Assembly: GCF_056712565.1 (NCBI RefSeq)
Contig: NZ_CM160072.1
Reading direction: 5' to 3' (one strand)
DNA length: 64,000 nt
A program made the translations under genes and the position numbers. The notes under the pieces were generated by a model that was not told the origin of the DNA, did no database searches, and saw only the letters and a list, made by a program, of their open reading frames with translations. This document shows, piece after piece, positions 10,840-38,968 of the stretch (within the stretch, counting starts at the first letter, position 1; each line of letters opens with the position of its first letter).

Positions 10840-11727
10840 TTAGCCATTCTTTCTTCCCGTTTTCAGTCCTCGATGGAAATCGTTAATTCGCTTAATGGTT
10901 TTAACCGCACGCTGCGGCACTGCGGAAGCTACCGACCAGACAATCATTTCCAGACACAACAATACCGTACCATGTAGCGGCGTTTTCCCTTTTTCATCCC
11001 CGCGCGGAACATGAATCACGATACTGGCGTCTTTGCTAAAACGTGAATCCAGCGCGTTTGTCAGCAAAATAACAGGGATCCCCAGCCGCCTCGCCTCACG
11101 AAGCGTTGTCAGCCCTTCCCGGTGCGCAGATTTTTGCGCCATCATGATCAGAACATCGCCACGTTGAAGCGCGATCAGTTGCTCGGCAAGGCCAATACCC
11201 GTACGGTTTAGTGCCGTGGCAGGCAAACCTATGCGGTTGAATAGTCGTGCGGTATAGTCCGCCAGAATACCCGAAGCGCCAATGCCAAAAATTGCGACTT
11301 GCCGTGCCTGCACCAACAACGCTACAGCTTGCGCAAGCGCGTGGCGGTTTTCAGGCTCTGACAGGACATTACAGGTATACAAATGCCCTTCAAGAACAAA
11401 GTCGATTGCGGTGTTAACATCGCTCGTCAAGTTACTCACCGTCGTAGACATCTTTTCGCTGGAACTAAGGGCTGGACCAAGCCACTGTTCCAGAGTGCGT
11501 TTCAGATCACGCAGCCCGGCAAACCCCAGGGCCTGTATAGCCCTGATAACTGTGGCATCGGAAGTGTTCAACGTGGCCGCAATTTCCATCGCCGTTTGCT
11601 CGAGTACCACTTCACGATGCTCATTAATGTAGCTGGCGACAGCTCTTAACCCAGGCGTTAACTGACTCGCGCGAGTGCGAAAACGCTCACCAAAAATATC
11701 AACCCGCGCTTTATCTTTCTGGATCAT
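10840..11727 (-). CDS. RpiR/MurR-family transcriptional regulator (N-terminal HTH, C-terminal SIS domain); last gene of Fit-like uptake operon
   Basis: 295-aa ORF; HTH region then SIS-like segment VAIFGIGASG...; start overlaps stop of upstream binding-protein gene. Confidence 0.8.
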   Translation of the reverse strand: MIQKDKARVDIFGERFRTRASQLTPGLRAVASYINEHREVVLEQTAMEIAATLNTSDATVIRAIQALGFAGLRDLKRTLEQWLGPALSSSEKMSTTVSNLTSDVNTAIDFVLEGHLYTCNVLSEPENRHALAQAVALLVQARQVAIFGIGASGILADYTARLFNRIGLPATALNRTGIGLAEQLIALQRGDVLIMMAQKSAHREGLTTLREARRLGIPVILLTNALDSRFSKDASIVIHVPRGDEKGKTPLHGTVLLCLEMIVWSVASAVPQRAVKTIKRINDFHRGLKTGRKNG

Positions 11728-28471: not shown

Positions 28472-29140
28472 ATGTCGAAATTAGGGATCTCATCACTATT
28501 TAAAACCATACTGCTTACCGCAGCTCTGGCGGTTTCATTTACCGCTTCTGCATTTACCGAAGGCACGGATTACATGGTTCTGGAAAAACCAATTCCGAAT
28601 GCCGACAAAACGCTGATTAAGGTATTTAGCTACGCCTGCCCGTTCTGTTACAAGTACGACAAAGCGGTTACCGGTCCGGTATCGGAAAAAGTGAAAGATA
28701 TCGTTGCTTTCACGCCATTCCATCTGGAAACAAAAGGTGAATACGGCAAACAAGCAAGCGAAGTCTTTGCGGTCTTGATCAATAAAGATAAAGCAGCAGG
28801 CATTTCCTTATTTGATGCTAACTCTCAGTTTAAGAAAGCCAAGTTTGCCTACTACGCGGCTTATCACGACAAAAAAGAACGCTGGTCTGACGGTAAAGAT
28901 CCGGCTGCTTTTATCAAAACCGGTCTGGATGCCGCAGGTATGAGTCAGGCGGATTTTGAAGCGGCACTGAAAGAACCAGCGGTTCAAGAAACACTGAAAA
29001 AATGGAAAGCCTCTTATGATGTCGCCAAAATCCAGGGAGTTCCAGCCTATGTCGTTAATGGTAAGTACTTGATCTACACCAAGAGCATCAAATCCATCGA
29101 CGCGATGGCAGACCTTATCCGTGAGTTAGCAAGCAAATAA
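28472..29140 (+). CDS. dsbL: periplasmic thiol:disulfide oxidoreductase DsbL (DsbA paralogue)
   Basis: 222-aa ORF with signal peptide and CPFC active-site motif. Confidence 0.88.
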
Positions 29141-29154
29141 CAGGGAAACAGGCT

Positions 29155-29826
29155 ATGGGTATTAAGGGAATGTGGAAAGATCTTCGCACATCACCAGTTG
29201 ACACACTGGTCAGATGGCAGGAGCAACGCTTGTTGTGGTTGTTAATGGCCGTTGCGATGGGCGCGTTAATTATCCTGGCGCACTCTTTCTTCCAGATCTA
29301 TCTCTACATGGCACCCTGTGAGCAATGTGTATACATTCGCTACGCCATGTTTGTGATGGTTATTGGAGGATTGGTTGCAGCGATCAACCCAAAGAACATC
29401 ATCCTAAAGCTAATTGGCTGCGTGATGGCATTTTACGGCAGCATTTTGGGACTGAAGTTTTCGCTCAAACTGAACGATATCCACCATGCAGTACATAATC
29501 CGGATCCCGATTCACTGTTTGGCGTACAGGGTTGCTCTACCGATCCCACTTTTCCCTTTAACCTGCCGCTGGCACAGTGGGCACCAAATTGGTTCAAGCC
29601 TACCGGGGATTGTGGCTATGACGCACCAATCGTTCCTGATGGCGTCACACTGAGCAGCACGCAACAGTGGTTTGTGGAAATGTATCAGCAATCTGAAGGC
29701 TGGTATCTGCTACCACCATGGCATTTTATGAATATGGCTCAGGCTTGTATGCTGGCTTTTGGTATGTGTCTGGTGCTGCTGGTCATTATGAGTGGCGCAT
29801 GGGCGCTTAAAATCATCAGAGGCTAA
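29155..29826 (+). CDS. dsbI: membrane disulfide oxidoreductase DsbI (DsbB paralogue)
   Basis: 223-aa membrane ORF with CEQC motif. Confidence 0.88.
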
Positions 29827-30802: not shown

Positions 30803-31576
30803 ATGTCAGTACCTCTCATTCTGACCATACTGGCGGGGGCAGCCACGTTTATTGGCGCGTTTCTCGGCGTTCTCGGGCAAAAACCCTCGAACCGCTTACT
30901 GGCGTTTTCGCTAGGATTTGCGGCGGGGATCATGTTGCTCATCTCATTAATGGAAATGCTTCCTGCCGCATTAGCCGCCGAAGGAATGTCGCCTGTGTTG
31001 GGTTATGGAATGTTTATCTTCGGTCTGCTTGGCTATTTTGGCCTGGACCGCATGTTGCCACATGCGCATCCGCAGGATTTAATGCAAAAATCGGTGCAGC
31101 CGTTGCCAAAATCGATCAAGCGCACAGCCATTCTGCTCACTCTCGGCATCAGTCTGCATAACTTCCCGGAAGGGATTGCCACCTTTGTCACGGCGAGCAG
31201 CAACCTGGAGCTGGGATTTGGCATCGCCCTGGCCGTAGCGTTGCACAATATTCCTGAAGGTCTGGCGGTTGCAGGCCCGGTTTACGCTGCAACAGGATCG
31301 AAACGTACCGCGATTCTGTGGGCGGGCATTTCCGGACTGGCTGAAATTCTCGGTGGCGTTCTGGCGTGGTTAATTCTTGGCAGCATGATTTCTCCGGTGG
31401 TCATGGCGGCAATCATGGCGGCGGTTGCAGGAATTATGGTGGCGCTCTCCGTTGATGAATTAATGCCGCTCGCCAAAGAGATTGACCCCAATAATAACCC
31501 CAGCTATGGCGTGCTATGTGGAATGTCAGTGATGGGATTCAGTTTAGTGCTGCTACAAACGGCGGGAATTGGTTAA
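30803..31576 (+). CDS. zupT: zinc transporter ZupT (ZIP family)
   Basis: ORF 30761-31576; start placed at [22 protein letters not shown] (257 aa). Confidence 0.92.
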
Positions 31577-31587
31577 AGACGATAATG

Positions 31588-31621
31588 ACAGATGTTGCCC
31601 ATTGCTAAAGGCAACATCTGT
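31588..31621. terminator. hairpin terminator downstream of zupT
   Basis: acagatgttgcc - cattgctaaag - ggcaacatctgt inverted repeat. Confidence 0.6.
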
Positions 31622-31637
31622 ATCGTTATTAAAGGTA

Positions 31638-31823
31638 TTATTGATGCTTTTCAAACACTTCTTTATCGGAGCGTTTATCTAATTTACTTCGGGCAGCTAA
31701 CAGCGCATCTCTGTCATGGCGAAAAGCTTTACAGTAACGTTTAAGATGAAGAAAATAGCCACCAGCCAGTAGAACAATTAATACAATCCAGTACCAGGCA
31801 ATAAACATCCTTTTCACCTTCAA
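31638..31823 (-). CDS. small single-TM membrane protein (61 aa), hypothetical
   Basis: ORF MKVKRMFIAWYWIVLIVLLAGGYFLHLKRY... with one hydrophobic helix and basic tail; flanked by terminator hairpin and AT-rich upstream region. Confidence 0.4.
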   Translation of the reverse strand: MKVKRMFIAWYWIVLIVLLAGGYFLHLKRYCKAFRHDRDALLAARSKLDKRSDKEVFEKHQ

Positions 31824-32378
31824 AATTTAACATTACTAAACATTTAGCGTTAAAATTTCACATATCCATCGTTGAATACATTCATATACTCGCATAATTC
31901 TGGATCAAGTATATGATTTCGATCATAGTAAGTGTTGTATTATATACCATATCTGGTCAAAAAAAGAACAACCAAGGCTATTAATATATATTATCCCCCG
32001 ATAAAACATTACTAATTAATAATAAAACTTAATAAGCATCGCTAGATATATATTATATCTTCACGATTATTAAGCCCCTACTCGTTATAATAAGTATACA
32101 CTCCCCCCTTTACAACATTAGGCGTAAACCTTTGTCAACAAACGGTTGTTTTTTCGCCGCAATTCATACAAAAAAATTATCACAAATAACGATAAACAAC
32201 AAACATCTAGATATATACACCTCAATATATAACGGGGAATTATATTTTAAGTTTTACTTAATCAGCATTTAATATAAATAACGAGTCAAATTATCTCAGG
32301 TTATGGTAATGTCCATAGCTGAATTAATATTAAATTCAAACCTGTATTTTCCTCATCCATTTATAAAGGATTATAGTC

Positions 32379-32942
32379 ATGTTAAAAAAAACATTGTTAT
32401 CTATGTTCGCAACCGCATTGTTATCAGGCGTTGCTTTTAACGCTCTTGCTGACGATGCTAATCAGGGTTCAGGTAAAATTACTTTTAAAGGTGAAGTTAT
32501 CGATGCACCTTGTTCTATTGCTCCTGGTGATGAAGATCAGACAATAAACCTCGGTGAAGTTGCTGATACCGTATTAAAAAGCGGTCAGAAATCACTGCCT
32601 GTAGATGTCACCATTCATTTGCAGGATTGTATTTTATCTGACGGCACTAACACTGTTGATAAAGTCAAAATCACCTTTAGTTCTGCCAGTGTTGACGCTA
32701 CCGACTCCAACCTGCTTAAAAACACTCTGGAAGGTAACATCGGCGGCGCAACTGATGTAGGCGTACGTCTGGTGAAATCAGACAACACCAACGTGACTCT
32801 TGGCACTCCAATCACTATCAACTTCCCGACGACTAACTCTTACCAGGAGTTGAACTTTAAAGCCCGTATGGAGTCTCTGGGACGCACCGCGACCCCGGGT
32901 AACGTGCAGGCACAGGCTAATTACGTACTCGACTACAAGTAA
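32379..32942 (+). CDS. fimbrial major subunit (chaperone-usher pilin)
   Basis: 187-aa ORF with signal peptide, pilin Cys pair and C-terminal beta-strand (…ANYVLDYK). Confidence 0.85.
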   Translation: MLKKTLLSMFATALLSGVAFNALADDANQGSGKITFKGEVIDAPCSIAPGDEDQTINLGEVADTVLKSGQKSLPVDVTIHLQDCILSDGTNTVDKVKITFSSASVDATDSNLLKNTLEGNIGGATDVGVRLVKSDNTNVTLGTPITINFPTTNSYQELNFKARMESLGRTATPGNVQAQANYVLDYK

Positions 32943-33028
32943 TCGGTAGTCAATACCTACACAACGCCAGGCGGTAAAGCCGATGAAATTTCATCGGCAA
33001 CTTTGGGCCTTTTTAGAAATGGATTTTT

Positions 33029-35551
33029 ATGAACAATAAAAACACGTTTTCCCGGGATAAGTTATCCCATGCAATTAAAAATGCCCTGTCTGGCGTTGTG
33101 TGTTCCCTACTCTTCGTTTTGCCAGTCCACGCCGTAGAATTCAACGTCGATATGATTGACGCAGAAGACCGTGAGAATATCGACATCTCTCGTTTTGAGA
33201 AAAAAGGCTATATCCCCCCTGGTAGATACCTCGTTCGTGTGCAAATAAATAAAAATATGTTGCCACAAACGTTAATACTGGAATGGGTAAAAGCCGATAA
33301 TGAAAGTGGTTCGTTACTCTGCTTAACCAAAGAAAATTTGACTAATTTCGGTCTTAATACGGAATTTATTGAATCATTGCAAAACATAGCTGGCAGCGAA
33401 TGTCTCGATTTAAGCCAACGTCAGGAGTTAACGACACGACTTGATAAAGCTACGATGATATTATCGCTAAGTGTTCCCCAGGCATGGTTAAAATACCAGG
33501 CAACAAACTGGACGCCACCAGAGTTTTGGGATACCGGTATCGCCGGGTTTATCCTTGATTACAACGTGTACGCCAGCCAGTATGCCCCACATCACGGAGA
33601 CAGCACCCAAAACGTCAGCTCCTATGGTACGTTAGGCTTTAACCTCGGCGCATGGCGCTTACGTAGCGATTACCAATATAATCAGAATTTTGCTGATGGA
33701 CGCTCGGTAAACCGCGACAGCGAATTTGCGCGAACTTATCTGTTTCGCCCTATCCCCTCCTGGTCGTCAAAATTCACTATGGGCCAGTACGACCTGAGCT
33801 CCAATCTTTACGATACCTTCCACTTTACTGGCGCATCGCTGGAAAGTGATGAAAGCATGCTGCCGCCAGATTTACAGGGTTATGCGCCACAAATTACCGG
33901 CATCGCGCAGACCAACGCGAAAGTAACTGTGGCACAAAATGGTCGTGTACTTTATCAAACCACTGTCGCGCCAGGCCCTTTTACTATTTCTGATTTGGGG
34001 CAATCGTTTCAGGGGCTGCTGGATGTCACAGTGGAAGAAGAAGATGGCCGCACCAGCACCTTCCAGGTTGGCTCCGCATCCATTCCCTATTTAACCCGTA
34101 AAGGGCAAGTGCGCTATAAAACGTCACTGGGAAAACCGACATCCGTCGGGCATAACGATATCAATAATCCCTTTTTCTGGACGGCGGAAGCCTCCTGGGG
34201 CTGGCTGAACAATGTGTCGTTGTATGGTGGTGGCATGTTCACCGCTGATGATTATCAGGCTATCACTACCGGTATTGGCTTTAACCTTAACCAATTCGGT
34301 TCGCTTTCTTTTGATGTCACTGGAGCAGACGCGTCTTTACAGCAACAAAATAGCGGCAATCTGCGTGGTTACAGCTATCGCTTCAACTATGCAAAGCATT
34401 TCGAATCGACAGGCAGTCAGATTACCTTCGCGGGTTATCGCTTCTCAGATAAAGATTACGTGTCGATGAGTGAGTACCTCAGCTCGCGTAATGGCGATGA
34501 GTCAATCGATAATGAAAAAGAGAGTTATGTCATTTCCTTGAACCAGTACTTTGAAACGCTGGAATTAAACTCTTATCTCAACGTTACACGCAATACTTAT
34601 TGGGACAGCGCCAGCAATACCAACTACTCCGTATCTGTAAGCAAAAACTTTGATATTGGCGATTTCAAAGGTATATCTGCATCGCTGGCAGTAAGTCGAA
34701 TCCGCTGGGATGACGACGAAGAGAATCAATATTACTTCTCTTTCTCTCTACCTTTACAACAAAACCGCAACATCTCCTACAGTATGCAGCGAACGGGAAG
34801 CAGTAATACTTCGCAGATGATTTCCTGGTACGATTCATCAGATCGCAACAATATCTGGAATATTTCAGCGTCGGCAACGGACGACAATATACGTGATGGC
34901 GAACCAACACTGCGCGGCAGCTACCAGCACTATTCGCCGTGGGGACGTCTGAACATTAATGGCAGTGTACAGCCGAATCAGTACAATTCTGTTACCGCAG
35001 GCTGGTACGGTTCACTTACCGCTACACGTCATGGTATCGCCCTTCACGATTATAGCTATGGCGATAACGCCCGCATGATGGTCGATACCGATGGCATCTC
35101 CGGCATTGAAATCAACTCTAACCGTACCGTTACCAACGGGCTGGGCATCGCCGTGATACCTTCGTTATCGAACTACACCACCTCCATGTTGCGGGTGAAC
35201 AATAACGATCTGCCAGAAGGTGTCGATGTCGAAAACTCGGTTATTCGCACCACGCTCACCCAGGGTGCCATCGGCTACGCAAAACTGAATGCCACCACCG
35301 GTTACCAAATCGTCGGCGTTATTCGTCAGGAAAATGGGCGCTTCCCTCCACTAGGTGTGAATGTCACGGATAAAGCGACAGGTAAAGATGTGGGCCTGGT
35401 CGCGGAAGACGGCTTCGTTTATCTCAGCGGTATTCAGGAAAATAGTACTCTGCATTTAACCTGGGGTGATAATACCTGTGAAGTCACGCCGCCAAACCAA
35501 AGTAACATTAGCGAAAGCGCAATAATTTTACCTTGTAAAACAGTCAAATAA
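33029..35551 (+). CDS. fimbrial outer-membrane usher
   Basis: 840-aa ORF with signal peptide, in usher position. Confidence 0.88.
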   Translation: MNNKNTFSRDKLSHAIKNALSGVVCSLLFVLPVHAVEFNVDMIDAEDRENIDISRFEKKGYIPPGRYLVRVQINKNMLPQTLILEWVKADNESGSLLCLTKENLTNFGLNTEFIESLQNIAGSECLDLSQRQELTTRLDKATMILSLSVPQAWLKYQATNWTPPEFWDTGIAGFILDYNVYASQYAPHHGDSTQNVSSYGTLGFNLGAWRLRSDYQYNQNFADGRSVNRDSEFARTYLFRPIPSWSSKFTMGQYDLSSNLYDTFHFTGASLESDESMLPPDLQGYAPQITGIAQTNAKVTVAQNGRVLYQTTVAPGPFTISDLGQSFQGLLDVTVEEEDGRTSTFQVGSASIPYLTRKGQVRYKTSLGKPTSVGHNDINNPFFWTAEASWGWLNNVSLYGGGMFTADDYQAITTGIGFNLNQFGSLSFDVTGADASLQQQNSGNLRGYSYRFNYAKHFESTGSQITFAGYRFSDKDYVSMSEYLSSRNGDESIDNEKESYVISLNQYFETLELNSYLNVTRNTYWDSASNTNYSVSVSKNFDIGDFKGISASLAVSRIRWDDDEENQYYFSFSLPLQQNRNISYSMQRTGSSNTSQMISWYDSSDRNNIWNISASATDDNIRDGEPTLRGSYQHYSPWGRLNINGSVQPNQYNSVTAGWYGSLTATRHGIALHDYSYGDNARMMVDTDGISGIEINSNRTVTNGLGIAVIPSLSNYTTSMLRVNNNDLPEGVDVENSVIRTTLTQGAIGYAKLNATTGYQIVGVIRQENGRFPPLGVNVTDKATGKDVGLVAEDGFVYLSGIQENSTLHLTWGDNTCEVTPPNQSNISESAIILPCKTVK

Positions 35552-35557
35552 TTCAGG

Positions 35558-36307
35558 ATGAATATAATGAAATCACCATTAATCACAACAGGAATGATTT
35601 GTTTACTGGGGATCTGCAACTTTGCCCAGGCGACTGTCTCTCCCGACAGAACACGCATCATTTTTAATGCTTCGAATAAAAGCGCAACGGTTCGCCTGAC
35701 CAACCAAAGTAAAATCGATCCCTATCTGGCTCAGTCGTGGATTGAAGATGCCAGCGGTAAAAAAACGCGTGATTACATCTCGACATTGCCGCCGATGGAA
35801 CGTATTGAGCCTGATGAACAGATACAAATTCGCCTGATGGCACTGGCCTCGTTAAACGACTTACCACAGGACCGAGAAACGTTGTTCTACTATAACGTGC
35901 GAGAAATTCCGCCGCGCGCCAAAGAACAGAATGTAATGCAAATCGCCATGCAAAGCCGCCTGAAGCTATTCTGGCGGCCAAAAGCGATTGAGTTAAAAGA
36001 GGGGGAGATGATTCCTCTGCAAAAAGTAACGATTACCCGCACCGCCGCCGGTCTGACCCTGAATAACCCGACGCCTTATCATATTACCGTCGGTTATATC
36101 GGCACTAATGGCAAGACACTGATGCCCGGTGCGGACAGTATTATGGTGGTACCATTTACTTCTGCAACTCAACACCTAAGCAGCCTGCCCTCTACCTTCC
36201 AGTTAGGCTTTGTGGCGGACTACGGCGGGCTGGAGATGTTTAAAGTCGAATGTAATTCCATCCAATCCCTCTGCCAAACCTCTCCTGCTAAGAAGGGGAA
36301 AATATGA
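35558..36307 (+). CDS. fimbrial periplasmic chaperone (PapD-like)
   Basis: 249-aa ORF with signal peptide; 4-bp overlap with adhesin gene. Confidence 0.85.
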   Translation: MNIMKSPLITTGMICLLGICNFAQATVSPDRTRIIFNASNKSATVRLTNQSKIDPYLAQSWIEDASGKKTRDYISTLPPMERIEPDEQIQIRLMALASLNDLPQDRETLFYYNVREIPPRAKEQNVMQIAMQSRLKLFWRPKAIELKEGEMIPLQKVTITRTAAGLTLNNPTPYHITVGYIGTNGKTLMPGADSIMVVPFTSATQHLSSLPSTFQLGFVADYGGLEMFKVECNSIQSLCQTSPAKKGKI

Positions 36308-37353
36308 TTACGCTTTTTCGTTTACTGGCGATTCTTTGCCTGTTTTTTAACGTTTCAGCTTTTGCTGTTGATTGCTATCAGGATGGGTACAGAGGAACAA
36401 CCCTCATAAATGGAGATTTACCAGCGTTCAAAATTCCAGAGAACGCGCAACCTGGGCAAAAAATTTGGGAGAGTGGAGATATTAATATCACGGTTTATTG
36501 TGACAATGCACCAGGATGGACAACAGACAATCCATCAGAAAATATCTATGCCTGGATCAAATTACCCCAAATAAATAGTGCCGACATGTTGAATAATCCA
36601 TATTTAACCTTTGGCGTGACTTATAATGGTGTAGATTATGAAGGGATAAATGAAAGAATTGATACTCATGCATGCCTGGATAAATATGAGCAATACTATA
36701 ATGGGTATTATTATGACCCTGTATGCAATGGCAGTACCCTTCAAAAAAATGTAACATTTAATGCCCATTTTCGCGTCTATGTAAAATTCAAAAGCCGCCC
36801 AGCAGGAGATCAGACGGTGAACTTTGGCATAGTCAACGTGTTACAATTCGATGGCGAAGGAGGGGCAAACATGTCCTCTAACGCGAAGAATTTACGCTAT
36901 GTGATTACGGGATTAGATAATATTTCATTCCTTGACTGTAGTGTCGACGTCCGGATTTTTCCAGAAAGCCAGATAGTTAATTTCGGGCAAATTGCTGCAA
37001 ACTCTATTGCTACTTATCGACCAAAAGCTGCATTTAGCGTATCTACTATAAAAGATGTTGCTGCCGATTGTACCGAGCAATTTGATGTTGCCACCAGCTT
37101 TTATACGACAGATACGTTACATGATGATACGCATCTGGAAATGGGTAATGGTTTGTTGATGCGTATTACTGATCAAAAAACACAAGAAGACATTAAGTTT
37201 AATCAGTACAAACGCTTCACCACATATATTCCAGGTCAGACTGGAGCGATGGTTACCCGTGATTACCAGGCTGAACTTTCACAAAAACCGGGGGAGACTC
37301 TCGTTTATGGGCCTTTCAAAAAAGATCTCATCGTAAAAATAAACTATAACTGA
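36304..37353 (+). CDS. fimbrial tip adhesin (two-domain: lectin + pilin domain)
   Basis: 349-aa ORF with signal peptide, Cys-rich N-terminal domain; last gene of operon. Confidence 0.75.
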   Translation: MITLFRLLAILCLFFNVSAFAVDCYQDGYRGTTLINGDLPAFKIPENAQPGQKIWESGDINITVYCDNAPGWTTDNPSENIYAWIKLPQINSADMLNNPYLTFGVTYNGVDYEGINERIDTHACLDKYEQYYNGYYYDPVCNGSTLQKNVTFNAHFRVYVKFKSRPAGDQTVNFGIVNVLQFDGEGGANMSSNAKNLRYVITGLDNISFLDCSVDVRIFPESQIVNFGQIAANSIATYRPKAAFSVSTIKDVAADCTEQFDVATSFYTTDTLHDDTHLEMGNGLLMRITDQKTQEDIKFNQYKRFTTYIPGQTGAMVTRDYQAELSQKPGETLVYGPFKKDLIVKINYN

Positions 37354-37406
37354 ACAGCAAAATGCCGGGAACACCCCGGCATTTTCATATTTAGTATTTC
37401 ACGTCA

Positions 37407-38060
37407 TTAGCTGGCTTTACGCTCATGTGCCTGACGGTATGCCACCAGGTCTTCAATAGTCACGAGCGCCATATTGTGTTTATTGGCAAACTCAATGCAC
37501 TCTGGTGCACGCGCCATCGTGCCATCGTCATTAGTCAGCTCACACAGCACACCAGCTGGTTTAAAGCCTGCCAGCGTCATCAGATCGATAGTCGCTTCAG
37601 TATGACCGCCACGCGTCAGTACACCACCTGCCTGCGCGCGAAGTGGGAAAACGTGGCCCGGACGATTCAGATCTGAAGGTTTTGCGCCATCGGCAATCGC
37701 TGCGCGAACGGTCGTAATACGGTCAGCGGCAGAAACACCGGTAGTCACACCTTCAGCCGCTTCAATGGTCACGGTAAAACCGGTGCCATAGGCGCTGGTG
37801 TTATTTTCTACCATCATTGGCAGATCGAGTTGTTTACGGCGATCGTCAGTAATGCACAGGCAAACAATACCACTCCCGTGGCGAATGGTCAGCGCCATCT
37901 GCTCAACGGTCATGGTTTCTGCCGGGAAGATCATATCGCCTTCGTTTTCACGGTCTTCATCATCAAGCACCATCACACCGCGTCCTTCACGCAGCGCAGC
38001 CAGTGCATTTTCAACACGTTCGAAAGGCGTACCAAAAGAGGAAAGTAGCGTCTGATTCAT
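37407..38060 (-). CDS. ribB: 3,4-dihydroxy-2-butanone 4-phosphate synthase
   Basis: 217-aa [45 protein letters not shown]..., recognised RibB. Confidence 0.95.
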
Positions 38061-38119
38061 GGTAAAAAAACCTCACTAAAATTATGGTTACCAGAATCAG
38101 GGCAGTCTTAGGAGTGGCG

Positions 38120-38315
38120 GCATATAGCCAAAATAACGTGAGCGGGTCCATGCCCGACAGAATCGTTACTCTCTCCCATCCGGACTCTAACCGTCGGCCC
38201 CGGAATTACACCGGATCTGCTGTCCTTTGAGTTCGCACCCAAAGCGCTCGCGGGCTTTCAACTGAGTTGATTTACCGCCGGTGGGGAATTTCGCCCCGCC
38301 CTGAGAATAAGCGGA
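38120..38315 (-). promoter_or_regulatory. FMN riboswitch (RFN element) in ribB 5' leader
   Basis: Minus-strand sequence contains ...GGGCGGGGCGAAATTCCCCACCGGCGGTAAA...CCGACGGTTAGAGTCCGGATGGGAGAG..., conserved FMN-aptamer blocks. Confidence 0.8.
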
Positions 38316-38433
38316 TTCACTATAACGCTAATGATTAGCGCCAGCAACGCATAGCTTCACATAATTCTGGTTTATGACTTACCCTTATCGCACTACAATG
38401 GCACTCAACACCTATCAGTACAGGGAAACTACA

Positions 38434-38733
38434 ATGATTGACCCGAAAAAAATTGAGCAAATCGCTCGCCAGGTTCACGAATCAATGCCTAAAGGAATCA
38501 GGGAGTTCGGGGAAGATGTGGAGAAAAAAATCCGCCAAACCCTACAAGCGCAGCTGACGCGTCTCGATCTGGTAAGCCGCGAAGAATTCGACGTTCAGAC
38601 GCAAGTCCTGTTACGGACTCGTGAAAAACTGGCGTTACTGGAGCAGCGCATCAGCGAACTGGAAGCGCGCAATAATCCGATAGCAGAACTTCAATCTCCT
38701 CCGGCTATCCCGCCAGTTGATAAAGCAGAATAA
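38434..38733 (+). CDS. ubiK: ubiquinone biosynthesis accessory factor UbiK (YqiC)
   Basis: ORF 38374-38733; start placed at [13 protein letters not shown]... preceded by agggaaa RBS. Confidence 0.8.
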
Positions 38734-38767
38734 AGCACCACAAAAACGGGCCAGACGGCCCGTAATA

Positions 38768-38968
38768 TCAGTGTTCTAATTCAAGTTCTCTGGTTTGCAT
38801 CATCTGTTGGCAATACCAGGCATAACGCGCGCAAAACCAGGTTCTATGTTCTTCATCCATGTTACCAGTAACGGCCAGAATATCGACCGGGCGACCTTCT
38901 GCGTGCATTCTGGCAAAACTACGCGCGAGAAAATCGAAATTATTTAAAGAATTAAGACTATGATCCAT
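38768..38968 (-). CDS. glgS: surface composition regulator GlgS
   Basis: [66 protein letters not shown] (66 aa). Confidence 0.9.

Follow-up and report, generated by a model that had tools for sequence, protein, structure and literature searches.

The fimbrial operon at 32379-37353 of the window, the 64,000-nucleotide stretch of DNA analysed here, is ExPEC adhesin I (EA/I; also known as Yqi or Ygi), in the position it normally has in phylogroup-B2-type E. coli. The best explanation of the locus as a whole combines this identity, a position and history distinct from those of the K-12 homologue, and probable regulation from an AT-rich leader that hosts one conserved block, a candidate promoter or operator, and one chance copy of a sequence motif; we give it a probability of about 0.9. 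The operon, its part in models of avian and urinary-tract infection, its binding of glycans, the structure of the adhesin domain and the operon's position relative to the K-12 homologue are all already known. The leader, its allelic classes and its invariant block are not described in two accounts of EA/I (PMC2771359, PMC8545135). The features of the region are as follows.

31638-31808, minus strand: yqiD, a small backbone gene (ORF list; RefSeq annotation of the identical SF-468 region and of K-12)
31809-31927, no strand: backbone part of the intergenic region, common to K-12 (blastn and pairwise alignment with K-12)
31928-37406, plus strand: strain-specific segment of about 5.48 kb (leader, four genes, terminator), replacing 145 bp of K-12 between yqiD and ribB
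31928-32378, plus strand: hypervariable AT-rich leader (allele comparison, 992 genomes)
32029-32062, plus strand: conserved block, TTAATAAGCATCGCTAGATATATATTATATCTT (allele alignment, promoter scan, BLAST)
32124-32138, plus strand: CpxR-box-like GTAAA-N5-GTCAA, a lead only (sole match in 64 kb)
32207-32217, plus strand: motif copy 2, CTAGATATATA, found only in window-like leader alleles
32247-32261, plus strand: proximal block TTAAGT-TTT-ACTTAA, a 6-3-6 palindrome with an invariant core, TTTACTTAA (32253-32261)
32302-32330, plus strand: invariant 9-mers TATGGTAAT (32302-32310) and AATTAATAT (32322-32330) (allele alignment)
32379-32942, plus strand: major fimbrial subunit, YgiL-like, c3791 homologue, 187 aa (NCBIfam PRK09733)
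33029-35551, plus strand: outer-membrane usher, 840 aa (NCBIfam StdB, StfC-type and SteB-type ushers, E 4e-209 to 6e-179)
35558-36307, plus strand: periplasmic PapD-like chaperone, 249 aa (NCBIfam StdC, SteC and StfD chaperones; RefSeq start 35567)
36304-37353, plus strand: two-domain tip adhesin YqiI (EA/I), 349 aa, 1,050 bp (PDB and Pfam matches)
37359-37385, no strand: hairpin terminator with an 11-pair stem, common to the convergent adhesin gene and ribB (terminator scan)
37407-38060, minus strand: ribB, the right flank, with its FMN riboswitch at 38164-38312
38665-38738, no strand: position of the K-12 Yqi-like operon, unoccupied here; glgS directly follows the 3′ end of ubiK, an end whose sequence departs from K-12

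The first-pass annotation, made from the sequence alone, had read the operon as major subunit, usher, chaperone and two-domain adhesin, resembling ygiL-yqiGHI or ExPEC adhesin I. The open reading frames and family searches bear out this order over the 4,975 bp, and the operon proves to be EA/I itself. The subunit scores 344 bits against the PRK09733 equivalog (cutoff 189), and its start, preceded by a Shine–Dalgarno sequence, AAGGA, at 32366-32370, is the site of primer IMT-P3045. The usher matches 15 usher families over its full length (best E 4e-209) and the chaperone matches 20 fimbrial chaperone families (best E 2.5e-56, StdC-type). Residues 22-213 of YqiI (36367-36942) form the receptor-binding domain and are covered by PDB 9rwu/9rwv (E 2e-125), structures for which a literature search found no paper; residues 214-349 form the pilin domain, with a weak match to Pfam Fimbrial PF00419 on 223-349 (E 0.003).

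The agreement with published strains is complete. A yqi cluster of 4,975 bp with an adhesin gene of 1,050 bp was published from APEC IMT5155, UTI89 and CFT073 (PMC2771359). Compared with EA/I of APEC IMT5155, UTI89, APEC O1 and CFT073 (Antao et al. 2009, PMC2771359; Day et al. 2021, PMC8545135) every testable feature agrees, i.e. cluster length, gene order, adhesin gene length and primer sites, and the operon shows no differences. The published primers also fit: IMT-P3045 (PMC2771359) aligns from 32379 and IMT-P2511 falls on the terminator. Identity is 100% between the window and E. coli SF-468, and 99.8% between the window leader and that of UTI89; among the carriers listed, most are human and avian ExPEC isolates. 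Roles in adhesion and lung colonisation have been published for EA/I, as has binding to terminal GlcNAc and to Lewis and blood-group glycans (PMC2771359, PMC8545135).

By analogy with its family, EA/I subunits would pass into the periplasm, be capped by the chaperone and be polymerised through the usher by donor-strand exchange, with YqiI placed at the fimbrial tip and its N-terminal domain expected to bind host glycans. The best family matches of the usher are StdB, StfC-type and SteB-type profiles, which we take to be ushers of the pi clade of Nuccio and Bäumler, and the window operon would then be a chaperone-usher system of the pi type. The Salmonella Std, Stf and Ste systems give the best curated matches for both usher (StdB, E 4e-209) and chaperone (StdC, E 2.5e-56). 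However, the scores lie far under the equivalog cut-offs (697 versus 1,289 bits), and these systems are therefore relatives and not orthologues. Unlike Std, the window has no stdEF-like regulator genes and its strain-specific leader has no GATC cluster. With Pap (P) fimbriae the operon shares a chaperone-usher system and a two-domain tip adhesin, but it has no papI/papB-like genes; its link to PapB-family regulators runs via TosR.

The operon does lie between zupT and ribB, as had been claimed, except that yqiD intervenes between zupT and the operon. Homology to K-12 breaks off at 31927 and picks up again at 37409. The K-12 map confirms that ygiL-yqiGHI sits between yqiC (ubiK) and glgS, about 1.3 kb from the site of the window operon, and these two genes are, as annotated, adjacent here (38733/38768). 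Synteny thus places the two operons at different sites. The first-pass annotation had offered a choice between a repositioned locus and a distinct paralogous fimbria; what we find is a homologue that is distinct, has diverged and occupies a different site, with amino acid identities to K-12 ygiL, yqiG, yqiH and yqiI of 59, 56, 48 and 37%, below orthologue level. The K-12 Yqi-like system (Wurpel et al. 2013, PMC3559732) has the same gene order, chromosomal neighbourhood and a homologous two-domain adhesin. Its leader is also AT-rich and shares the TTAAGTTTTACTTAATC block, but at 283 bp it is the shorter of the two, and the palindromic block described below is absent from it.

Yqi and "Yqi-like" operons have been described as related, differently placed and mutually exclusive (PMC3559732). 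Of 5,426 complete genomes, 992 carry Yqi and about 3,361 carry Yqi-like; about 1,070 have neither, and none has both. The union, 4,354, is the sum of the two classes, and the ubiK-glgS site is empty in 2,059 genomes. Confirming this exclusivity at the population scale (0 of 5,426 complete genomes) is one modest addition of this work.

That the two operons never occur together, and that they share gene order and neighbourhood, might suggest that the window operon is simply the K-12 fimbria moved 1.3 kb by a local rearrangement. We find this barely credible. Not only is protein identity to K-12 as low as given above, but each of the two receptor-binding domains has its own structure in the PDB, and the window usher is nearer to the zupT-ribB ushers of other genera (62-89%) than to K-12 YqiG (56%). 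The same site is occupied by this operon in E. whittamii, Pluralibacter, Enterobacter asburiae and Trabulsiella, whose ushers are 89, 76, 67 and 62% identical to that of the window, and in a frameshifted form in Leclercia. The Leclercia NCTC13032 locus consists of fragmented open reading frames (assembly frameshifts or pseudogenes) and was therefore used for synteny only. K-12 YqiG is equidistant from the window usher and those of other genera, at 51-56%. Since the zupT-ribB site is common to several enterobacterial genera, the operon there looks ancestral, which argues for retention of an ancestral locus over a recent ExPEC-specific gain; this is a second modest addition. Most likely, judging by synteny and identities, the operon was ancestral in E. 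coli and would have been retained mainly in B2-type lineages; the remaining E. coli carry the more diverged Yqi-like homologue at ubiK-glgS instead, or neither.

The leader had been placed at 31824-32378. It is indeed AT-rich (28% GC), but its true extent is that of the 570-bp divergent intergenic region, because yqiD, which is transcribed divergently from the operon, lies between zupT and the operon. A mechanical yqiD reading frame with a TTG start extends to 31823. The first 104-119 bp or so of the claimed leader and of the intergenic region, respectively, up to 31927, are K-12-type backbone. Leader identity to the window across the 992 carriers falls into classes of about 100, 98, 96, 82, 79 and 61-67%. 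The leader and the receptor-binding domain of the adhesin are two allelic hot spots. Small open reading frames in the leader are all short and of low complexity, and in an Rfam scan of 31500-38800 the ribB FMN riboswitch was the sole passing match, with none in the leader.

H-NS-type proteins would probably keep such a GC-poor leader silent until anti-silencers, e.g. the PapB-family protein TosR, open it. In CFT073, c3791 is raised by TosR overproduction (PMC5956150), and in K-12 the homologous ygiL spacer is bound by RpoD holoenzyme and H-NS (PMC3946193).

One part of this variable leader stands out. The block at 32029-32062 is 91-94% identical where the remaining leader is about 61-80%. It contains a sigma-70-like −35 TTAATA (32029-32034), a 16-bp spacer and a −10 TATTAT (32051-32056), as well as a perfect 7-3-7 palindrome, AGATATA-TAT-TATATCT (32044-32060). 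Within it, a run of 20 columns, CTAGATATATATTATATCTT (32042-32061), is invariant across the 7 sampled alleles, which represent about 3 clades (P=5e-5 by column shuffle). By BLAST, a 45-bp version of the block is present at at least 90% identity, a looser measure than strict invariance, once per genome in 992 of 992 carriers. One allele with a 13-bp deletion recreates TTAATA at the same spacing. On the other hand, promoter-like sites are not in excess in the region (5 versus 5.6 in shuffles), and the block is absent from the leaders of E. whittamii and of the K-12 Yqi-like operon. With the leaders of other genera, only the ribosome-binding region, TATAAAGGATTATA, is in common; the palindrome is absent there at up to 5 mismatches. 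The block is, on this comparative evidence, our best candidate for a distal sigma-70 promoter, an overlapping operator, or both.

The block includes the first of two ctagatatata motifs. The first-pass annotation had noted these near-identical motifs about 165 bp apart and proposed them as possible regulator sites. They do exist: CTAGATATATA occurs exactly twice in the 64-kb window, at 32042 (copy 1, 32042-32052) and 32207, 165 bp apart. Whether the pair is unusual depends on the null. Whole-window shuffles give an expectation of 0.01, which looks significant, but the correct null is local dinucleotide shuffling of the leader, where an exact repeat of at least 11 bp arises in 26% of shuffles (P=0.26); two other 11-mers are also repeated in the leader. 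As a repeat, the pair is no more than chance.

It is accordingly improbable that the motifs work as a pair, both bound by the same regulator, e.g. by looping over the 165 bp, even though both include the rare CTAG and the whole-window count is so low. In the orthologous leaders copy 1 is kept and copy 2 is absent from most: NRZ14408 and U1 have CCAGGTATACG in its place, PM06121 and AZ153 have CCAGAAAAATA, and going by sampled class representatives, leader classes with an altered copy 2 make up roughly 87 plus about 530-560 of the 992 carriers, i.e. about two thirds. Nor does copy 2 have the right half of the palindrome; it is most likely a chance match. Constraint is seen at copy 1 only, as part of the palindromic promoter-like block and not as a repeat unit. 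Even less plausible, indeed highly improbable, is a fim-like invertible promoter element flipped by a recombinase in trans. Perfect 10-bp inverted repeats, TAAAACTTAA (32023-32032) and TTAAGTTTTA (32247-32256), lie 214 nt apart, flank the block at 32029-32062 and overlap both conserved blocks, and B2 strains carry extra FimB-like recombinases. However, the same AT-rich leader holds several other perfect 10-bp inverted repeats, the arms match at only 8 of 10 positions in the AZ153 allele, and the annotation of the neighbourhood lists no recombinase gene, whether fimB/fimE-like, as first noted, or other. Searches with both major leader alleles gave a single position on one strand in essentially every carrier (992 genomes with 992 places, and 989 with 990), and the inverted orientation was seen in none. 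A pap-type Dam/Lrp or Std-like GATC switch was rejected as well. The pap switch has two conserved GATC sites within Lrp sites about 100 bp apart, plus its papI/papB-like genes, whereas the intergenic region has just two GATC sites, at 31903 and 31921, which are 18 bp apart, lie in the backbone part and are unconserved, the first being lost in strain U1 and in K-12.

A more serious alternative, though one we regard as doubtful, is that the block serves only as the operator of a dedicated dimeric transcription factor, and that the promoter lies in the proximal elements at 32247-32330. The perfect inverted repeat speaks for this, and the proximal blocks are common to the K-12 ygiL and E. whittamii leaders, the K-12 spacer being one that binds RNA polymerase. 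But palindrome arms of this length are ordinary for the composition (P=0.52), no regulator gene lies within or beside the operon, and the conserved stretch also spans the TTAATA upstream of the palindrome. Compared by eye with the consensus sequences for Lrp, Fis, IHF, CRP, OxyR and TrpR, the palindrome gave no convincing fit. A promoter fits the block better than a pure operator, because the hexamer is conserved and the deletion allele restores it at the same spacing. A bolder version of the promoter reading, which we put forward tentatively and would not bet on, is that the block is the control point of EA/I, a promoter with an overlapping operator for a regulator acting in trans, and that leader and receptor-binding domain are cassettes swapped by recombination. 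If true, both the adhesin variant expressed and the wiring of its regulation would differ between ST95-like and ST131-like lineages, with only the core site in common. The block also offers a concrete 34-bp target for mapping how a usually silent fimbria gets switched on, a third modest addition.

The main promoter may instead be proximal, since the blocks at 32247-32330 are more deeply conserved than the one at 32029-32062. The block at 32247-32261 recurs in the K-12 leader ahead of ygiL and, a few mismatches aside, in that of E. whittamii, and the 9-mers at 32302-32330 are possible proximal promoter elements (TGn-TAAT.., TAATAT). For K-12 ygiL a computational −35/−10 pair, TCGATA-17-TATAAA, has been proposed (PMC3946193); its position is not conserved in the window and it was set aside as the promoter here. 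Finally, the CpxR-box-like match at 32124-32138 has an expectation of 0.15 in 64 kb, at least one match arising in 13 of 100 shuffles. Its GTAAA...GT.AA is kept in 7 of 7 alleles, and the AZ153 allele carries a perfect GTAAA-N5-GTAAA.

The chaperone-usher operon between zupT and ribB is a known, named and functionally studied fimbria, ExPEC adhesin I (EA/I, also called Yqi). We identify it as such because several lines of evidence agree. E. coli SF-468, an isolate from human blood, matches the window region at 100% identity, and 32379-37353 measures 4,975 bp, the length given for the yqi cluster of APEC IMT5155 (Antao et al. 2009, PMC2771359), which was reported to be identical in UTI89 and APEC O1 (PMC2771359). 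The cloning primer IMT-P3045 of Antao et al. 2009 includes ATGTTAAAAAAAACATTGTTATCTATGTTCGCAAC, the window sequence at 32379, and their knock-out primer IMT-P2511 includes the terminator hairpin. The leaders of UTI89 and of the window share 99.8% identity, and glycan arrays have been done with the same operon cloned from CFT073 (PMC8545135). The finding is thus already known, and the remaining interest is small, namely a block of sequence kept within an otherwise variable leader. What the first-pass annotation observed is for the most part correct; its interpretation holds for the operon and its position, and fails for the repeat. The features used below are as follows.

31638-31808, - strand: yqiD, a small gene (flank annotation)
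32302-32310: proximal conserved element of the leader, TATGGTAAT
32322-32330: proximal conserved element of the leader, AATTAATAT
32379-32942, + strand: fimbrial subunit (PRK09733, 344 bits against a cut-off of 189)
33029-35551, + strand: outer-membrane usher (best family match StdB, E 4e-209)
35558-36307, + strand: fimbrial chaperone (best family match StdC, E 2.5e-56)
37359-37385: hairpin terminator, ending the operon against the convergent ribB
38164-38312, - strand: FMN riboswitch 5′ of ribB (Rfam RF00050, 120.9 bits)

Four co-directional ORFs lie here (32379-32942, 33029-35551, 35558-36307 and 36304-37353), and with the curated family matches these bear out the operon order of the first-pass annotation: subunit, usher, chaperone, two-domain adhesin. 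The last ORF had no match in an NCBIfam search. We read it as the two-domain adhesin since residues 22-213 are nearly identical to a solved domain (PDB 9rwu/9rwv, E 2e-125) and residues 223-349 match Pfam Fimbrial, weakly (E 0.003). The operon is flanked by zupT, yqiD, ribB, ubiK and glgS, the last two adjoining each other (38733/38768). The annotation of this neighbourhood contains no recombinase gene, in agreement with the earlier remark that none of the fimB/fimE type lies nearby. Elsewhere in the window, 28472-29826 and the DNA upstream of it carry genes for an aryl-sulfate sulfotransferase, a DsbA/DsbL-type oxidoreductase and DsbI, 5′ of ygiD. K-12 has ygiB and ygiC in their place, and we take the window genes to be the known UPEC assT-dsbL-dsbI cluster.

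The first-pass annotation placed the K-12 operon between yqiC (ubiK) and glgS, and suggested that the window might hold a distinct fimbria. Both points are correct. The K-12 order is zupT, yqiD, ribB, ubiK, ygiL, (IS2), yqiG, yqiH, yqiI, glgS. In a synteny comparison window 31928-37406 stands in place of 145 bp between yqiD and ribB, and the ubiK-glgS interval is 6.6 kb in K-12 versus 74 bp in the window. The K-12 operon (Yqi-like) is homologous to that of the window, yet distant in sequence, with amino acid identities of 59% (subunit), 56% (usher), 48% (chaperone) and 37% (adhesin), and the receptor-binding domains have separate PDB structures, 9rwu for the window type and 9rwe for the K-12 type. 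A local translocation of the K-12 operon is excluded by this divergence. The positional difference has already been published: Wurpel et al. 2013 (PMC3559732) describe Yqi and Yqi-like as closely related, differently placed and mutually exclusive, Yqi belonging to phylogroup B2 and Yqi-like to A, B1, D and E.

In a set of 5,426 complete E. coli genomes, the window-type operon is present in 992 and the K-12 type in 3,361; ubiK directly adjoins glgS in 2,059. Co-carriage was examined with a chimeric query, for which a genome with both operons would yield one place at ~100% coverage; none of the 5,426 did so. Carriers of either operon number 4,354, the same as the two classes added together, so ~1,070 genomes have neither operon; in these, zupT to glgS spans only ~2.8 kb. 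One of the 992 matches to operon plus leader lies in a record labelled plasmid.

When species-representative genomes were scanned, the operon was also present at zupT-ribB in E. whittamii, Pluralibacter, Enterobacter asburiae and Trabulsiella, their ushers being 89%, 76%, 67% and 62% identical to that of the window, against 56% for K-12 YqiG. YqiG is about equidistant (51-56%) from all of these zupT-ribB ushers. The simplest reading of synteny and identities is that the zupT-ribB operon would be an old locus retained vertically, with K-12 Yqi-like as the outlier. Leclercia has the operon at this site too, in frameshifted form; in L. adecarboxylata NCTC13032 (7000-12000 of the extracted locus) it is split into many short ORFs, through assembly frameshifts or pseudogenisation.

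The region 5′ of the subunit gene is 28% GC, as AT-rich as first described, but the first 104-119 bp of the supposed 555-bp leader are backbone common with K-12. The motif CTAGATATATA occurs at 32042 (copy 1) and 32207 (copy 2) and at no other place in the window, and this pair had been proposed as possible regulator sites. As a repeat the motif fails: when the 555-bp leader is shuffled 2,000 times with dinucleotides preserved, 26% of the shuffles contain an exact direct repeat of at least 11 bp, and copy 2 is missing from alleles unlike the window's. Two further 11-mers are repeated in the real leader. In an alignment of seven leader alleles, picked across the identity classes found in the 992 genomes, copy 1 is kept, whereas copy 2 is limited to window-like alleles, reading CCAGGTATACG in NRZ14408 and U1 and CCAGAAAAATA in PM06121 and AZ153.

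With the window leader as query, 153 of the 992 genomes match at ≥99% identity, 192 at 95-99%, 87 at 80-90% and 560 at 60-80%; the AZ153 leader matches 527 at ≥95%. Copy 1 opens the longest invariant run of the strain-specific leader (31928-32378), CTAGATATATATTATATCTT at 32042-32061, 20 columns against a background of 50% invariant columns (P=5e-5, column shuffle). Between allele clades the surrounding block, 32029-32062, is 91-94% identical versus 61-80% for the remaining leader, and a 45-bp query around it has a match of ≥90% identity in each of the 992 carriers, with one copy per genome. A stretch of 20-34 bp is kept across E. coli lineages that are ~99-100% identical in their backbone yet diverge by up to 39% in the rest of the leader.

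The block appears in the promoter-scan list as a sigma-70-like TTAATA-16 bp-TATTAT, and includes the perfect inverted repeat AGATATA-TAT-TATATCT. Strain 1410D004 has a 13-bp deletion (window-equivalent 32016-32028) between two TTAATAA direct repeats; the original TTAATA is lost and a second one comes to lie 16 bp from TATTAT, as the first did, which fits selection on a promoter. Against over-reading this role we weigh that promoter-like matches in the leader region are no commoner than in shuffles, that the palindrome arm length is ordinary for the composition, and that the block is absent from the E. whittamii and K-12 ygiL leaders. The proximal elements (32247-32261, 32302-32310 and 32322-32330) are conserved more deeply; the first, TTAAGT-TTT-ACTTAA, has an exact copy 5′ of K-12 ygiL and a few mismatches in E. 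whittamii. Block and proximal elements are all candidates for the working promoter.

As to regulation, the literature offers the hints that c3791 rises strongly in CFT073 when TosR is overproduced (PMC5956150), that RpoD holoenzyme and H-NS bind the K-12 yqiC-ygiL spacer in genomic SELEX (PMC3946193), and that BolA overexpression raises ygiL in K-12 (PMC4337573). Together with the 28% GC these make it likeliest that the leader would be silenced by H-NS-type proteins and released by anti-silencers, the conserved blocks serving as promoter or factor sites. An invertible switch might be imagined from the perfect 10-bp inverted repeat (32023-32032, 32247-32256) on both sides of the block; it is rejected by the single orientation in ~990 genomes and the abundance of like repeats in this AT-rich DNA. 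A Pap- or Std-like Dam switch is likewise rejected, as there are only two GATC sites, which lie in the backbone part at a distance of 18 bp and are not conserved. An Rfam search of 31500-38800 found no RNA element in the leader, and an ORF scan gave nothing there beyond short, low-complexity ORFs.

Some further observations concern the leader. GTAAACCTTTGTCAA at 32124-32138 resembles a CpxR box (GTAAA-N5-GTAAA) and is the sole match in 64 kb; 7/7 alleles keep GTAAA...GT.AA, with perfect consensus in AZ153. The region's best sigma-70 consensus match, TTAACA-18-TAAAAT (10/12, 31827-31856, + strand), lies in the backbone part and is directed toward the operon; K-12, without an operon there, has a similar TTAACA-17-TATAAA. 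The homopolymer tracts A7 (31957-31963), C5 (31995-31999) and C6 (32104-32109) show one-base differences between near-identical leaders, e.g. window and Nissle 1917, as short tracts varying by single-base indels; the UTI89 and HS13-1 leaders also have a 1-bp length difference.

Set against the commonest other allele, that of E. coli Ecol_AZ153, the window operon is mosaic. Nucleotide identity is 61-66% in the leader (31928-32378), and amino acid identity is 76% in the adhesin receptor-binding domain (36367-36942) versus 97.8% for the pilin domain, 97.7% for the usher and 99.5% for the subunit; the flanking genes are 99-100% identical. Regulatory region and receptor-binding domain look like cassettes exchanged separately.

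Finally, the last ~20 residues of UbiK are entirely unlike between the window (38665-38733) and K-12 (11625-11684 of the K-12 locus, ending ...NRSTEIKKQPDPETLPPTL). Homology with other genera likewise ends at 38664, so this tail varies in general, with the boundary of K-12 Yqi-like falling inside ubiK.
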